This document shows, in pieces, positions 36,582-50,910 of a stretch of DNA of 64,000 bases. The notes beneath the pieces are model-generated. The model worked only from the letters and a program-made list of their open reading frames with translations. It did no database searches and was not told where the DNA came from. Position 1 is the stretch's first letter. Every line of letters begins with the position of its first letter. A program made the translations under genes and the position numbers. This stretch comes from a virus, in IMG/VR virus record IMGVR_UViG_3300018890_000001, positions 628 through 64,627 of that record; one strand, written 5' to 3'.

Positions 36582-37751
36582 TTGGATACGTTTATGTATT
36601 TCACAAGTAGAAAACTGTCAAATAACTTAATTGTTGGTCTAAAAAAGGCTGAAGTTGTTTTCAATAACAAGAAGGATTGTTATGAGGTAAAGATACCACA
36701 ACTCGATCGCCAAGATTACGAGGAGTTTAAACAAGTTCTCGAAGAAATCCACGGTAAGTGGAACCATTCAGCAAACGCACACGTTTTCGAGTCCGATCCG
36801 ACAGAAATGTTAAATGCGGTGATTGAAGTGGGTTGTTTCCCTCAAAGGAAACCGCATGATGCGTTTTTTACGCCTCCAGATGTTGTAGACGATTTATTGC
36901 GATGGGGTGGCTTTCACTACTCTCAAGGAGTGAGTCATTATTACAAATGTTTAGAGCCTTCTGCCGGACACGGCTTTATAATCGATGTACTCAGAAGGAA
37001 ATACCCAGGAGTTGAAAAATGTTTTGACTGCTGCGAAATAGACGGTTTTAATCGGGATATTTTACAGCGAAAAGGTTACAACATTGTTGGCGATAATTTT
37101 TTACAAACCAAGCTCGAACCACAATATCACTGGGTAATTATGAACCCACCTTTCAACGGGAAGGCTGGCGATTATATAGCACATATTGAAGCTGCATTTG
37201 AATTGCTGCTTCCAGGTAGAGATTTGCTGGCGATCGTGCCCGAATCATTTCTAACTTCACAGGCTAAGCGCGTTGTGAAGTTTAGGAATAAAGTGTTTAC
37301 CTATGGTGAACACGCCAATTTACCCGACAAGGTTTTTGCTGAATCGGGAACTCAAATCAAATGCTGCATGATAAAAATGCAGAAGTACAGTCCTGTAAAG
37401 ATTCAAGAATTTGAAACACCAGGATATCTATACGATTACTTTGATCTTTATACAGGTCAAATTATCGTCAGCTTAACGAGTGAGTCAGAATGGTTTAAAC
37501 GTTTTAGCGCACTCGTCAATCAAGTCGAGCAAGGTAGGATAACTACAAAAGATATTTTTTTGAAGGAAGTTGTACGTGATGCGGATGATATTGTTTTATC
37601 TGCAATTTCACGTCATGAAGCTAGTTTCAGATGGGATGATTTCACCAAACAGAGATTAGCTGAATACTTTCTTCAAGATATGATTGATGAATATTTGGAT
37701 GGGCAGAATCCTTTCCAGAGTACAAAGCCTAGACAGTTATCGCTGTTCTAG
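36582..37751 (+). CDS. Orphan amino-DNA methyltransferase (N6A/N4C), phage type
   Basis: Motif I CLEPSAGHG and motif IV IMNPPF; N-terminal GKWN....HVF segment. Confidence 0.85.
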   Translation: MDTFMYFTSRKLSNNLIVGLKKAEVVFNNKKDCYEVKIPQLDRQDYEEFKQVLEEIHGKWNHSANAHVFESDPTEMLNAVIEVGCFPQRKPHDAFFTPPDVVDDLLRWGGFHYSQGVSHYYKCLEPSAGHGFIIDVLRRKYPGVEKCFDCCEIDGFNRDILQRKGYNIVGDNFLQTKLEPQYHWVIMNPPFNGKAGDYIAHIEAAFELLLPGRDLLAIVPESFLTSQAKRVVKFRNKVFTYGEHANLPDKVFAESGTQIKCCMIKMQKYSPVKIQEFETPGYLYDYFDLYTGQIIVSLTSESEWFKRFSALVNQVEQGRITTKDIFLKEVVRDADDIVLSAISRHEASFRWDDFTKQRLAEYFLQDMIDEYLDGQNPFQSTKPRQLSLF

Positions 37752-39056: not shown

Positions 39057-39091
39057 AAAGCCCCAAGAGATTTTAGATCTCTTGGGGCTTT
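39057..39091. terminator. Bidirectional terminator
   Basis: AAAGCCCCAAGAGAT / ATCTCTTGGGGCTTT. Confidence 0.75.
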
Positions 39092-39399: not shown

Positions 39400-39891
39400 T
39401 TAATATTTTATTGGTTCAAGATCTTTCATTATTTGGCGGTTGCTGACGGTGACAATCAACTTAATGTTTTTACCTTTAAGTGGAGGTTGCCTATCAGGAA
39501 TAGTCGTTTTCTTTAGCCATTTGGGACTGTCATCCACAATAAGTTTGGATTCAACCAGCCCATCAAGTAGGAACTTTCGAGCACCTTCTAAATTGTCGTC
39601 ATCTATGCGATTGTCTACAAAAAACAGTAAATTTACCCAAGTGGGTTCTCTGTACTTGATTAATTGTCGACTTTCGACGATGTGAATTATTTTACTAATC
39701 CATATTTTCTTTTGCCTTTCGTACTCGCTCGATCTCCGAAACCTTTTCCCACGGTTGGTTGCGCCAGAGACACAAAGCGTCCGCATTGCCAGCATCTCAT
39801 TTGTGGTCGGCGGAATCTCATCTAGCGCAAAATTTTGTACCAAATGTGCGATTTTTACTATTTTGAAATCTTTTTTGCTTGTTCTTGTCAT
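39400..39891 (-). CDS. rusA: RusA-like Holliday junction resolvase
   Basis: DDDNLEGARKFLLDGL....IVDDS matches the RusA D-x-D-N..K...D...DD pattern. Confidence 0.8.
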   Translation of the reverse strand: MTRTSKKDFKIVKIAHLVQNFALDEIPPTTNEMLAMRTLCVSGATNRGKRFRRSSEYERQKKIWISKIIHIVESRQLIKYREPTWVNLLFFVDNRIDDDNLEGARKFLLDGLVESKLIVDDSPKWLKKTTIPDRQPPLKGKNIKLIVTVSNRQIMKDLEPIKY

Positions 39892-39921: not shown

Positions 39922-40530
39922 TCAGAAATTCTTTTGACGCAATCCGCCTATATAGCCACGCAAATACGCTTCAGATAAGTTTATAAGCTCTTGTCCTTTA
40001 AGTGCTTTAGGGCTGTTAACGTGATGCGTTACTACGCGGTCTTCATCATTGTGGTTGAATTTAGCTACGAATAAGCGCTGATCTGTGTTGTCTAGATTTA
40101 GTCCATCCAGACAACCTATATTTTGCGTAAACAAAAGTAGAGTTTTTTTGTGCGTTTTTGCGAGCTTAAATAGGTCTTCTGTTAATCTCCGACAAAGGCG
40201 CGGATCTAGATATAACCCAAAGTCTTCAAAACCTACAATGTGAGGTGAAAGGCTTGACGAAACTACAGTCAAATAAAAACAAACAAGCCGCTCATGTCTT
40301 TTGCGGATTGTCTTTTCTGTTAAGAGCGTGCGATCGAATCCCATCGCGTGAAGCAATTCTTCGAGTTTAAATGGATATTCCTTGAAGGCGTTTACGAGAT
40401 TATCAATTTGCGAATCAGAGTGATCAGTCTTGTAAATAAATTCAATGTCAATCAGTTTGTCAGCAAGCCCGTCAAGGGCTCCTGTTTCTCCAATAAAGAC
40501 GTTAAATTGTGACAAATTCAGTTTTAACAT
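39922..40530 (-). CDS. Second degenerate AAA_21/ABC-type ATPase homologue
   Basis: FNVFIGETGA (no GKS), GFEDFGLYLDP (vs IDEPENGLHP), LFTQN (vs TTHN/S) and C-terminal LSEAYLRGYIGG. Confidence 0.6.
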   Translation of the reverse strand: MLKLNLSQFNVFIGETGALDGLADKLIDIEFIYKTDHSDSQIDNLVNAFKEYPFKLEELLHAMGFDRTLLTEKTIRKRHERLVCFYLTVVSSSLSPHIVGFEDFGLYLDPRLCRRLTEDLFKLAKTHKKTLLLFTQNIGCLDGLNLDNTDQRLFVAKFNHNDEDRVVTHHVNSPKALKGQELINLSEAYLRGYIGGLRQKNF

Positions 40531-40613
40531 TCGTTGTGTAAAATGAATTTCCTTTCTGCAACCGCAATTAAGCCCAACCTTTGGATGGTTGGGTCTTCAC
40601 GGTGTTTGACATT

Positions 40614-40862
40614 CTATTGGAATTCGGAAAGAATGGTACGGTATTCCTCACACGTTCTTTCGAGGTGTTCGAGTTTGCGGTAGCAATTGCGTTCGCTTCT
40701 AGTCACTTGGTTCAACATTGTTGAGTAAACCTGTTGTTGTTCCGCGTTTTTGTGGGCTAATTGCATGAACAGTTTCTGTAACTCGCAAATATCTAGTTCT
40801 CGTATTTCGTGACTCAAGCTAGCGAGCCGCGCCTGTACTTCGAGCGGTAATTCAATATCCAT
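40614..40862 (-). CDS. nblA: NblA-like phycobilisome degradation adaptor with C-terminal extension
   Basis: IELPLEVQARLASLSHEIRELDICELQKLFMQLAHKNAEQQQVYSTML aligns without gaps, by eye, to the NblA pattern (ELSLEQQF...V..MS.EQA...L..L.EQM......Y..LL). Confidence 0.6.
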   Translation of the reverse strand: MDIELPLEVQARLASLSHEIRELDICELQKLFMQLAHKNAEQQQVYSTMLNQVTRSERNCYRKLEHLERTCEEYRTILSEFQ

Positions 40863-41315
40863 ACCACGGTTTCTCTCTTGCAAAAAGTTGGGTTACGTAA
40901 ATGCGGAAGCCGTTAGTACCGTCTTCATCGTGAACTTCGCTGTCGATCACCTGTTCTCGAAATTTCTGTAACGATATTCTGAAACTTCTGCGGTCGCTAC
41001 GTTTTCTCTGATTTCGATAAGCCTAAGTGCTTTCACTTTGTCAGCTCGCGGATCGGACCCGGTGTGACAAATTGCACCTTCCCAAACATCAGCGTCGCAC
41101 ATCCACTGACTGTGCTCTCGCGCGATGTCGCTTATTTTATCTACAAGCTTTAAGGGGGGTAGCTTGAGACTTGTTCGGTGCTGATTGACGACATCAAATA
41201 TTACAGACTCGAATTCGATATCATTGTTCGACTGATGGATTTCGATGGGTAGGCGATCGACAGAAGGCTCTGGGGTTGGGAATAGATTGAAAAAGTTGAA
41301 AAGTGTACTTGTCAT
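40852..41315 (-). pseudogene. CAP/SCP-domain protein, split between frames
   Basis: VNQHR....PPL....IAREHSQWM...H...R...ENVA in ORF 40947-41315. The C-terminal YVTQLF motif lies in the -1 frame, ending at 40852. Confidence 0.6.
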
Positions 41316-44137: not shown

Positions 44138-45066
44138 TGGCTAGCAAGCGAGAACCGACAGTCAAAGACGTTCAGAAGATTCTGGATTTGCTTAAGACAG
44201 AAGATCCGTACAAAGAAAATGGGGGTTTAATTTACTGGGACGGCACCGTAACGTCAGAGCACAATTACGCGATCTGTCGAAGTGCGATTTTACTCGATCT
44301 TGACTCTTATGACTGGAAGAAAGTTAAAGCACTTTGGATTTGCGCGGAGTTGCCAAAACCACCGGGCTATATCGATGAGTGCTGTGGTGGTTGTGAAGAT
44401 CGAGAACTTTCTCGATTAGAACTCTCGAAGTTCGATTACGCGGAATTTGTTTCTACAGTTCCGCGCAAGGATTGGGTAACTCCGGGTCAAAAAGCTTGGG
44501 CGGATAAATTTGGAATCCCGGTCATTGTTTATCAGCGACCTTACCCAAATCCAGCAAAAGGGGAAAAGTTCGGGACGTGGGATATTTACGATCCAATCAA
44601 AACTAATGATAAGGCGATCGGTGTAAATCTCGGTCAATTATCGAAGTTCGCTGGAATTTCCGCAGTGGAAGATCGGGAACATTTGACCACGGTTGCCAGG
44701 CTGGCAATCGAGGAACGCGAATTGCACGAAGCAGCTATCCATGCAGCTTGGTTGAAAATGTGCAACGCTCATAATGAGGGGCTTCAGGAATGCCAGTTGG
44801 CTTACGAGCAATTGCAAGCACAAACTGAAGTGTTCGATCGTCGCATAAAAACTGCGTTGCACCGTATCGATCGCCAAGAAATACAATCACTAGCGCTGTC
44901 TGCAACGAAAGCTGCGCCTGTAAATATTCGGGCGCGATCGAAATCTAATACGGCAACTCCAGTGATGTCGGTATTACCACCAGCTAGTGCTGAGAAATTG
45001 GACAGTCCGCTTTACACAACGCCCCCCATTGAAACGTTTCAGTATATAGAGGTGCGAAGAATTTAA
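44137..45066 (+). CDS. Hypothetical protein (alpha/beta N-domain + coiled coil)
   Basis: TAATG coupling; A...GIPV motif is loosely like DUF4406/flavodoxin-like folds. Confidence 0.6.
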   Translation: MASKREPTVKDVQKILDLLKTEDPYKENGGLIYWDGTVTSEHNYAICRSAILLDLDSYDWKKVKALWICAELPKPPGYIDECCGGCEDRELSRLELSKFDYAEFVSTVPRKDWVTPGQKAWADKFGIPVIVYQRPYPNPAKGEKFGTWDIYDPIKTNDKAIGVNLGQLSKFAGISAVEDREHLTTVARLAIEERELHEAAIHAAWLKMCNAHNEGLQECQLAYEQLQAQTEVFDRRIKTALHRIDRQEIQSLALSATKAAPVNIRARSKSNTATPVMSVLPPASAEKLDSPLYTTPPIETFQYIEVRRI

Positions 45067-46260: not shown

Positions 46261-46734
46261 ATGAATAATCTGGATGACACGCCCGCGATCGTGTATCAGG
46301 TTGCTGTATTAAATGCCCGCGAATTTGCTGCTTGCAGATCGGCTCTAACAAATGGGTACTCGATCAAGCGAAGTGAGCTTTATATCCTTAATCGGAGAAC
46401 TGGAAAGCTCGTAACGCGAAAAACGCTTTGGGAATGGGATTGCATATTGCAAGCACACCCCAAAATGATCAACTATCGTCGGGATAGCACGCAGCAATCC
46501 CTGTGGAATCCTGGGCAAGCCTGGAACCCTCATCAGGTATGGTGTTTAGAAAAAGTTGCGGACTTTATGGCGACCAAAGCCATCTACCGCAACACTGAAA
46601 GCAAAAAGAGAAAGTACAAAAGCAAAGGGGTGTTGCGGTTCCCAACTTACGAAGAACTCAACCAATACCTTGCCGACAATCACGAAAAATTCACCCACAA
46701 ACAATTTCTGAAGGAGAGATTTCATGTCAGTTAA
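46261..46734 (+). CDS. Hypothetical protein
   Basis: 157 aa; overlaps the next start. Confidence 0.65.
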   Translation: MNNLDDTPAIVYQVAVLNAREFAACRSALTNGYSIKRSELYILNRRTGKLVTRKTLWEWDCILQAHPKMINYRRDSTQQSLWNPGQAWNPHQVWCLEKVADFMATKAIYRNTESKKRKYKSKGVLRFPTYEELNQYLADNHEKFTHKQFLKERFHVS

Positions 46735-47419: not shown

Positions 47420-47613
47420 ACAAGCTTCGCGAAGAGAATCGATCGGTAACGTTTATTCTCTTCGTTAGTTCAAATCAAAATCTGTGGAGTCGAATATTGG
47501 TTATGAATTGGCTACGGAATCGGATCAACAATTTTTTAGCAGCACCATCCCCCAGTTATACCGAATTTAGCTCTATTTGCGCTAATTTGATGGGTTTACC
47601 TTAAGGAGGCAAA

Positions 47614-47913
47614 ATGACAGTATCAAACGCAAACATTCCTTTCGATCGCGAGCAAGTCCGGTCTACTAAGCCTGAAGTTCAACAAGCGGAATCTCGCGTC
47701 ACTGACGAGTTTGAAAGAATTATTCCGATTGACGAACAGACTTTTAATCGCTTGCGATTAGGTGGAATTGATGAATCAGAGTATGGAACTATTGAAGACC
47801 GTTTGTTTGTATCGAGAACGGCATTTAATTCAAAAGGTGATTGCAGCCCTACTGACAATACCTGGAGGGTACTCAAGTCGATCGCCCGCAAAATTAGCAA
47901 AATAGGGGGTTGA
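47614..47913 (+). CDS. Hypothetical protein
   Basis: 99 aa; AAGGAGG RBS. Confidence 0.7.
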   Translation: MTVSNANIPFDREQVRSTKPEVQQAESRVTDEFERIIPIDEQTFNRLRLGGIDESEYGTIEDRLFVSRTAFNSKGDCSPTDNTWRVLKSIARKISKIGG

Positions 47914-49126: not shown

Positions 49127-50910
49127 TGAAGCACATCGCTGCAAAGCTTGTTTTAAGTGGTTTAGCGATTTTAATGGCGGTCGCGCCAGTTCCATTTGAA
49201 AAGTGGGCTTGGCAGCGAGTTGGGCTTGGCATTCTGGGATTGGCGGGAATAACTTCTACTAAGTCCAAAATTGACCAGGAGATGGAGGAACAGCATTTAG
49301 TTGATGTTCAAGTTTTTGAAGAAAAACTGTACGAAAGACAACTTACTGAATTACAGCGCGGGCTAGCCCTGGAAGCTGCGCGACAACAAGAAGCTATTCG
49401 GTTTGACTTACAAACTAAAATGGCGACCGCTGACTACCAAGGCGCGTTTGTCACCATCATGGAAGAAAAGCACCCTTACTACCTTGATGCTTTACAAGCA
49501 CAACAACAAGCTGCTTTAGAGGCTCAAAAACGAGCGTATTCTGCTGAAGGTGGATTGGTTGACCGTGTTGGTGAAATGATTGAAGTTGGGGTGATCGGAG
49601 CTGAGACAGGTATTAACCTAGAAACTGGTGTACAGCAAAATTCAATCCCTAAATATTTAAGGAGTTTCGTTTCAACTACTTGTTTGGCTTGGGGCGCGCA
49701 AGGTAGCGGTAAATCGTGGTTTGTTCGCTATTTAGCAAAAATTAAGGTTGATAAAGGATATCGCGTTATCGTCTTCGATCCAAACAGCAATCAAGCTGCT
49801 TGGAGAGGTGTAGAACTCATCAATACTTACGAAGCTATTGAAGAGAAGATGCGTTGGTATATCGAAGAAGTAATGTCGCGCTACCAAGTGTTTACAGCTT
49901 CTGATTATGACGAAGACGTTTGGCGGGCGCAACTTTGGACTGACGGTAAAGCAATTAGTGTTATTTGCGAAGAGGTTACAACCTATGCCGATTTTATCCC
50001 AGACACCGAATTAGTTAAACAGTTTATCAAGGTGGCGACTACATTAAGTCGAAAGCAAGAGATGCCAGTTACGTTTGTTACCCACAACAATACGCAAACT
50101 TGTTTCGGCAATATCAAAGGTCTTGGTCAGTTAATCGCGGATATGCAACAAATTAAGTTGATTCCCAAAACAGACCCACAAACAGATCAGCCAGTTGCAT
50201 CTGGTCGGGCGCAGGTGCGATCGAACAGCGAACAAAATTGGGTGGATGTTACAGTACCGAGAATTACCTCAAAAATTACAGATTTTACCCGAATAACACA
50301 GGTTATTTCTACCCAAGAACAGTCAGATATTGTTGATACTGAGACATCGAATCCTGTGGATAATTCCGTAGAGCTAGATCAAAACGAGATTAATTTGATT
50401 ACCAGTATCGAAACTCAAAAAGAGCAACTCGACGCGACTTTCAATAAAACCTACAATCCGCTAGATCACTTCATGCAAGAAGCTAGTCAAGAGCAGTTGG
50501 AAGAGATGATCAAAAGTTGGCGAGCGTTGGCTGATACGTCGCGATCAGACGTATCAGATACTTTGATACAAAAAAACGCATCTGATACGCATCAATCGCC
50601 AGAACCTGCACAGGATAACGGTTCGCGACGTATTTGGGATGTATCAGATTTCCGTAAAAACCTACCAGATCGCCAAGAGGAGGTGATGTTTCGAGAGTTG
50701 GATACATTTTTTCAAAACGTATCTCGTAGTCCCAACAGAATTATTAAAGAAGCGTGGGGACTCTCAAATGGGAATGTTTACAGTTCAATTGGAAAACCAT
50801 GTTTTGTCTATTTAGTGACAAAATATGGCACTGACGAGCACAAGACTTCCCCGAAGTTCGCAAAACACATTGGAGAATACTTGGGTTCTGATGACGCTAA
50901 TGACGAGTAA
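49126..50910 (+). CDS. Membrane-anchored P-loop ATPase (FtsK/HerA/TraD-like)
   Basis: Two N-terminal TMs, coiled coil, Walker A GAQGSGKS, VIVFDP, Walker B ICEEV, LSRK, and a possible C-terminal wHTH. Confidence 0.75.
   Translation: MKHIAAKLVLSGLAILMAVAPVPFEKWAWQRVGLGILGLAGITSTKSKIDQEMEEQHLVDVQVFEEKLYERQLTELQRGLALEAARQQEAIRFDLQTKMATADYQGAFVTIMEEKHPYYLDALQAQQQAALEAQKRAYSAEGGLVDRVGEMIEVGVIGAETGINLETGVQQNSIPKYLRSFVSTTCLAWGAQGSGKSWFVRYLAKIKVDKGYRVIVFDPNSNQAAWRGVELINTYEAIEEKMRWYIEEVMSRYQVFTASDYDEDVWRAQLWTDGKAISVICEEVTTYADFIPDTELVKQFIKVATTLSRKQEMPVTFVTHNNTQTCFGNIKGLGQLIADMQQIKLIPKTDPQTDQPVASGRAQVRSNSEQNWVDVTVPRITSKITDFTRITQVISTQEQSDIVDTETSNPVDNSVELDQNEINLITSIETQKEQLDATFNKTYNPLDHFMQEASQEQLEEMIKSWRALADTSRSDVSDTLIQKNASDTHQSPEPAQDNGSRRIWDVSDFRKNLPDRQEEVMFRELDTFFQNVSRSPNRIIKEAWGLSNGNVYSSIGKPCFVYLVTKYGTDEHKTSPKFAKHIGEYLGSDDANDE

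Follow-up and report, generated by a model that had tools for sequence, protein, structure and literature searches.

The stretch of DNA analysed here, referred to as the window, is 64 kb long and belongs to a 199,763-base IMG/VR virus record with a CheckV completeness of 100%. Tail-fibre and RusA-like genes are present in this phage, and eight CRISPR spacers in six Microcoleus genomes match it with 88-97% identity, which identifies Microcoleus as its host. It is a large virus that infects soil-crust cyanobacteria. Our concern is a short gene named mini-ATPase 2, one of twelve known members of a family that we call minis. The features needed below are as follows, in window coordinates.

39922 to 40530, minus strand: mini-ATPase 2 gene, 202 aa, open frame; an ABC-ATPase head derived from PDC-M31A, catalytically dead as judged by its motifs
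40462 to 40506, minus strand: first core strand and broken P-loop, residues 9-23; G-E-T-G invariant, Walker A Lys changed to Asp in 11 of 12 minis and to Gln in 1 of 12
40282 to 40305, minus strand: place of the ABC signature, residues 76-83; basic or bulky residues in place of host S-N-E-G-F, Arg81 invariant, register uncertain by about 2 residues
40198 to 40239, minus strand: Walker B strand and D-loop, residues 98-111; Asp changed to Glu in 4, to Lys in 7 and to Thr in 1 of the minis, with the D-loop Pro and Arg111 retained
40186 to 40200, minus strand: Arg patch, residues 111-115; same as in Microcoleus PDC-M31A, predicted nuclease contact from the second copy
40111 to 40134, minus strand: H-loop, residues 133-140; TQN in the window copy, THN in the three closest relatives
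39925 to 40056, minus strand: C-terminal arm with LSEAYLRGYIGG, residues 159-202; predicted to be where the host TOPRIM-like nuclease PDC-M31B mainly docks
39400 to 39891, minus strand: RusA-like gene next to mini-ATPase 2, matched at 39615-39648 (a protospacer) by a Microcoleus CRISPR spacer
36701-36741, 39615-39648, 44529-44574, 46576-46605, 47588-47616, 47803-47833 and 49760-49793: protospacers for Microcoleus spacers, 88-97% identity
14569 to 15324, plus strand: mini-ATPase 1, a dead head-only ABC ATPase of another AAA_15/AAA_21 subfamily, AbiLi / PDC-M38A-like

The RusA-like gene also adjoins the mini gene in the closest relatives, with the order swapped. In the window the two genes and an 86-aa membrane ORF are part of a leftward run, which ends at a 16-bp inverted repeat with A/T tails (39057-39091) resembling a bidirectional terminator. 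Two genes upstream of mini-ATPase 2 there is a gene with a CAP (cysteine-rich secretory protein family) domain (40947-41315, minus strand; Pfam PF00188, above cut-off). Around the mini-ATPase 2 gene, promoter signals did not exceed chance, and there was no match to an Rfam family. A hairpin of -21 kcal/mol over 90 nt is predicted in the leader (40531-40620, minus strand); it is absent from the leaders of relatives and has no Rfam match. The sole Shine-Dalgarno-like sequence, AAGGA, lies about 20 nt before the ATG.

Parentage, fold and family

What is the origin of mini-ATPase 2? The protein has no match in Pfam or in PHROGs. Its single match in the PADLOC search is PDC-M31A (E 5e-14), residues 83-197 being aligned with profile positions 277-392 of 395. 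As only this part of the profile is covered, the protein is a derivative of PDC-M31A and not a full member. In profile-profile comparison with full-length PDC-M31A, the C-terminal half reaches a probability of 100% (E 2e-42), and the N-terminal strand with the P-loop reaches 96.6%. The closest full-length relatives of the minis are the PDC-M31A ATPases of Microcoleus. Mini-ATPase 2 derives from the PDC-M31A subfamily, and it is neither a functional ABC ATPase nor a PDC-M31 system.

The structure predicted from a 125-row alignment is a compact ABC-NBD fold with pLDDT 90.8 and pTM 0.88, which supersedes an earlier weak prediction on 11 alignment rows (pLDDT 64). With this model as query, the best matches of the structure search (VIA) were all ABC heads with Z of 10-12.6, and the Atlas structure comparison gave TM 0.83 to AAA_15/21 clusters; no close viral structure was present in BFVD. 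The ABC fold, without which the reading of the first-pass annotation would fall, is supported for this protein.

The twelve full-length members of the mini family are 193-212 aa long with 40-76% identity, and every frame is open, with no stop or frameshift. Those on long contigs sit in related phages of 181-189 kb, which have several neighbouring genes in common, and the mini gene of the relatives lies among late or structural genes, outside any obvious anti-defence cluster. One mini is found in a different, prophage-like contig next to Rha and anti-repressor genes. A scan of metagenome contigs gave no match. The minis form one clade (100/100). A careful 38-row LG+G4 tree nests them among the Microcoleus sequences (91/91 and 85/92, not starred), while in a quick 114-row mixture-model tree they are unresolved and on a long branch; the trees do not settle the donor of the gene. 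Two side observations concern the contigs of relatives. On a contig of Microcoleus sp. herbarium7 (L014:1-3690) the mini and its neighbours occur twice as an inverted duplication, which is probably an assembly artefact or a hairpin end. In a related phage, a Cas_csx3 gene (PF09620; L001:16584-16889) lies about 6 kb from the mini. The ring nucleases of type III CRISPR include Csx3, so this gene may be another counter-defence gene.

Motifs, conservation and selection

The first-pass annotation had described Walker A (GETGALDG), Walker B (FEDFG) and the H-loop (TQN) as altered and a C-terminal LSE..GYIGG as retained. All of these are found in the open reading frame, and three corrections are needed, concerning the scope of the H-loop change, the reference for Walker B and the ABC signature. 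The Walker A pattern GxxGxGK[S/T] is broken throughout the family: along with the Lys, the Gly before it and the Ser after it have gone. The list of altered motifs was right as far as given; it left out the loss of the signature, where all twelve minis have basic or bulky residues in place of the host N-E-G (188-191 of 193). The Walker B Asp, present in 185 of 193 full-length homologues, is Glu, Lys or Thr in 12 of 12 minis, a loss specific to the phage proteins. Comparing it with hhhhDE is unsuitable, because the parent family already has Asn in the slot of the catalytic Glu (192/193); the right reference is the parent motif FAIDN. As to the H-loop, His is changed to Gln in the window copy and in 9 of the 12 minis, but the three closest relatives retain it. 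Therefore this change is not family-wide and not essential. From the loss of these motifs in the sequence, we infer that mini-ATPase 2 neither binds nor hydrolyses ATP.

What has been kept? The minis retain G-E-x-G of the P-loop, the first core strand, the D-loop Pro, LDxL, QRLF, LSE..G..GG and the C-terminal arm. In the Arg patch, R111 is found in 12 of 12, R114 in 11 of 12 and R115 in 9 of 12 minis, compared with 13-30% in distant homologues. Host residues 45-255, the hypervariable insert included, are mostly deleted or replaced by about 55 weakly aligning residues; since mini residues 25-82 align with host residues 161-221 at a hhalign probability of only 3%, the borders of the deletion are approximate. 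There are also new invariant residues, namely R81, G100, F101, G105, G139 and C140. In the core (residues 82-158) the identity to the Microcoleus consensus is 42% for the minis and 68% for distant full-length homologues, while in the tail (residues 169-202) it is 67% for the minis and 58% for the homologues. The pattern is thus inverted with respect to ordinary divergence: the arm is kept and the core has drifted.

Is such a gene simply on its way out? The dN/dS of the minis is 0.085-0.16 where dS is measurable, and 0.085-0.12 for close pairs (Fisher p <= 3e-18). Synonymous sites approach saturation. In each of the four gene segments, the window copy has a pN well under its pS. With dN/dS of about 0.1, mini-ATPase 2 is not decaying. 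It had been suggested that the altered ATPases reflect a strategy rather than decay, and as far as decay is concerned, purifying selection and the open frames bear this out. Neutral evolution and frame disruption, the marks of a pseudogene, both fail for the minis, and the selection test rejects the pseudogene reading.

The host pair and the predicted complex

The active homologues and their operon partners, which the first-pass annotation wished to see identified, turn out to be the PDC-M31A ATPase and, paired with it, the PDC-M31B nuclease of Microcoleus. PDC-M31A is matched in 66 and PDC-M31B in 62 of 79 genomes of the genus, and both are matched in 4 of the 6 spacer-bearing genomes. Across the collected loci (L019-L098) the pair is near-core in Microcoleus, with ATPase lengths of 368-431 aa. 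Directly downstream of PDC-M31A, in 71 of 81 loci, there is a gene with EGxxD and DxD motifs, which matches PDC-M31B and more weakly HEC-01B, DUF4276 and RloB. By these motifs and matches PDC-M31B is TOPRIM-like; a sequence search among solved structures gave no close relative for either PDC-M31B or the C-terminal arm. In several Microcoleus genomes (e.g. L028, L033, L063) PDC-M31B is truncated or has a stop. The pair occupies a fixed chromosomal site between M28-type peptidase and EamA-type genes (names by inspection) and not a defence island, a point against the decoy reading given below. Note that PDC systems are candidate phage defences (10.1101/2024.01.29.577857).

In the PDC-M31A family (L019:3926-5065 and relatives) Walker A is intact, the catalytic Glu slot holds Asn in 192/193 and the signature is S-N-E-G; the Walker A count of 193/193 is partly by construction, and alignment A4, made without that filter, gives at least 90%. 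Because of the Asn in Walker B, the host enzyme may be a slow or non-hydrolysing ATP switch. The hypervariable insert shows 14% identity at residues 121-160, against 84-100% around the motifs. No PDC-M31B homologue was detected in this phage (G000), in two related phages (G001 and G002) or around the minis checked, where positive controls scored, so that any partner of the mini must be that of the host. On two IMG/VR viral contigs, L008 and L007, the B gene comes after a PDC-M31A-like ATPase gene; it is complete on the former and cut by the contig end on the latter; some viruses or proviruses thus carry the PDC-M31 system itself.

Complex prediction was carried out with two copies of mini-ATPase 2 and Microcoleus PDC-M31B. 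The model scores 0.71 against 0.03 for the best control; at least 64% of the contacts recur between runs, and the partner has pLDDT of at least 84. Of the solved complexes 58 of 80, and of the mismatched pairs 2 of 110, come up to the score mark that the model passes, figures that are only roughly valid here. The predicted interface consists of arm 159-202 of one copy, centred on R191-G195, together with R111, R114 and R115 of the other copy. Mini-ATPase 2 is thus predicted to bind PDC-M31B at its C-terminal arm. The mini alignment held 113 host C-terminal halves, like complexes are already solved (PARIS 8UX9; MAD3-MAD4), and a pass is also obtained with close cousins of true partners, so the model locates the docking site of the family rather than binding by the window copy itself.

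Does the conservation agree with this site? The Microcoleus residue is found in at least 9 of 12 minis at 21 of 32 predicted interface positions and at 30 of 86 others (p 0.003). When only positions variable in distant homologues are considered, the numbers are 12 of 22 and 6 of 32 (p 0.007); the enrichment has p 0.07 under the strictest filter, and it is to be read with arm positions that are contiguous, not independent, and with no control for surface exposure. It also counts against the reading that the window copy is the most drifted at the interface, having 17 of 32 Microcoleus residues where the family has 17-22 and the median of full-length homologues is 15.

A candidate decoy and its alternatives

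How might the phage use such a protein? The explanation we prefer, with a probability of roughly 0.55, is that mini-ATPase 2 is a trigger-blind decoy that captures the host nuclease PDC-M31B; it draws on the structure prediction and the conservation pattern. In this scenario the phage would have taken a PDC-M31A gene from the host and trimmed it to a nucleotide-blind head, with the ATP-binding residues and the variable insert gone and the head-to-head surface and the PDC-M31B docking arm retained. In infection the mini, probably as a dimer, would bind PDC-M31B and keep it in the complex beyond triggering or activation, acting as an orphan, uninducible antitoxin-like decoy. Here we infer an anti-phage role of PDC-M31, a sensor function of the insert, inhibition on binding and the timing of expression. 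A precedent for the holding step is PARIS, in which the TOPRIM nuclease AriB sits where the two heads of the ATPase dimer meet until a phage trigger sets it free (PMC10802264, PMC11464382), and hydrolysis-dead AriA E393Q still holds AriB despite Ocr (PMC10802264). By analogy, one would expect a permanent lock to look like just such a head, with the docking arm but with neither insert nor ATP site. If PDC-M31 works as MAD3-MAD4 does, capture would still divert the nuclease, though it could activate it as well.

There are other ways to explain the same gene. The mini might act on the ATPase as a poison subunit, pairing head-to-head with full-length PDC-M31A, spoiling the composite ATP sites and blocking oligomer assembly or signalling, and any nuclease binding would then occur in the mixed dimer. 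The D-loop, the P-loop and such motifs of ABC ATPases lie at or near the head-head interface, and among what the mini has retained are the D-loop Pro, half of the P-loop (the first), LDxL, QRLF and LSE..G..GG; with the P-loop Lys and the signature both lost, both sites of a mixed dimer would be disabled. The activity of MAD3-MAD4 requires the assembled complex (PMC13662399). However, poisoning would presumably require subunit exchange into preformed complexes, and the host-specific conservation is centred on the predicted nuclease-contact arm while the core has diverged. The evidence favours nuclease capture over ATPase jamming, and we regard the latter as rather unlikely. The complex model and the interface conservation would serve just as well for a mini that stabilises or activates the host nuclease for use by the phage, in breakdown of host DNA or RNA or in exclusion of competitors. 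The mini gene adjoins a RusA-like nuclease gene, and the DNA cleavage of MAD3-MAD4 needs the ATPase scaffold but went on undiminished when Walker A was mutated (PMC13662399). But in PARIS the ATPase-bound AriB is inactive and its release requires ATPase-competent AriA, and co-opted antitoxins usually neutralise (PMC11825919), so such recruitment seems improbable.

Is the host system involved at all? The fold could have been reused for an unrelated phage role, as a scaffold or a regulator, which would suit the several positions switched to new invariant residues and the place of the relatives' gene among late or structural genes with no obvious anti-defence cluster. Yet it is hard to see why the arm and the Arg patch should have retained Microcoleus-specific residues if there were no host partner, and we give this role little credence. 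Finally, a captured gene now decaying without function might be expected from the loss of the catalytic motifs and the small size of the family, but dN/dS of about 0.1 in 4/4 segments, the lack of any stop or frameshift and the compact fold leave a remnant with hardly any probability.

How does the proposed decoy compare with known systems? PDC-M31 is its direct source family, with 44% identity over the last 118 profile columns and the C-terminal arm in common; the mini differs in being about half as long, lacking the Walker A Lys, the signature, the Walker B Asp and the insert, and being phage-borne with no partner gene. The mini model superposes on PARIS AriA (PDB 8UX9) with Z 10.3 and rmsd 2.7 Å over 154 residues, and an ABC head dimer holding a TOPRIM nuclease is common to both, though for the mini it is only predicted. 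AriA belongs to another subfamily and is a host sensor whose inserts build a hexamer, and T5 is known to counter PARIS with a resistant tRNA instead of a decoy ATPase. In MADS, MAD3-MAD4 is a compact ABC ATPase dimer with a TOPRIM-like nuclease at its apex, held mainly by one protomer with extra contacts to the other, and the mini model is alike; but that complex is the active form of a host module, and the report describes no phage mimic (PMC13662399).

Phage orphan antitoxins are closest in kind. AdfN of T4-like phages, the ICP1 antitoxin mimic and T4 Dmd are host-antitoxin-like genes without the toxin, and such genes have been co-opted more than once (PMC11825919). Here too, the phage carries a homologue of a host restraining subunit without its toxin, and the host carries the cognate system. 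Thus mini-ATPase 2 probably works like a phage orphan antitoxin, which is a known kind. T4 Dmd bears no relation to the antitoxin of the host. AdfN has enzymatic activity and undoes the damage caused by the toxin, whereas here a sensor ATPase has been turned into a pseudo-enzyme. In the literature searched, whose coverage is incomplete, no paper naming PDC-M31 and no ATPase-decoy anti-defence protein was found; what appears to be new in that literature is an orphan-antitoxin-like decoy built from a sensor ATPase turned pseudo-enzyme.

Many bacterial defences are pairs of an ABC ATPase and a nuclease, a large class with PARIS, Septu, Gabija, OLD, MADS and the HEC/PDC candidates among its members. 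With a phage pseudo-ATPase reduced to the surface on which the effector docks, there would be a new way to neutralise them, and one that can be searched for by sequence. What is more, mini-ATPase 2 is indirect evidence that the candidate pair PDC-M31 is a real defence in Microcoleus.

Does the same genome offer a second case? Mini-ATPase 1, like mini-ATPase 2, is a dead head-only ABC ATPase, and their parent families differ. The first-pass annotation had placed them in different subfamilies, which agrees with BLASTP detecting no similarity between them and with their best PADLOC families, AbiLi/PDC-M38A for the former and PDC-M31A for the latter. Mini-ATPase 1 has no match in G001 or G002, both of which have mini-ATPase 2. 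With no similarity, different parents and this absence, the view that two ATPases were neutered independently gains support in terms of separate origins. One may go further and propose that phages repeatedly convert the sensor ATPases of ABC-ATPase/nuclease defences into dead, sensor-less heads that lock the cognate nuclease, the window having two decoys from two subfamilies; this broader proposal is tentative, and we rate it somewhat below even odds. If it is true, dead sensor-less heads would form a general class of counter-defence that sequence searches can find, not described in the literature searched.

Other short PDC-M31A derivatives, of 231-243 aa, occur on small contigs (L017:672-1367, L109:2241-2960 and L018:340-1071). 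No nuclease gene was detected on the small contigs of P0075 and P0160/P0223. Walker A is intact in P0160/P0223, which have an LSGGQ signature; in the singleton P0075 the Walker A Lys is changed to Gln. These derivatives are possibly separate origins of mini heads.
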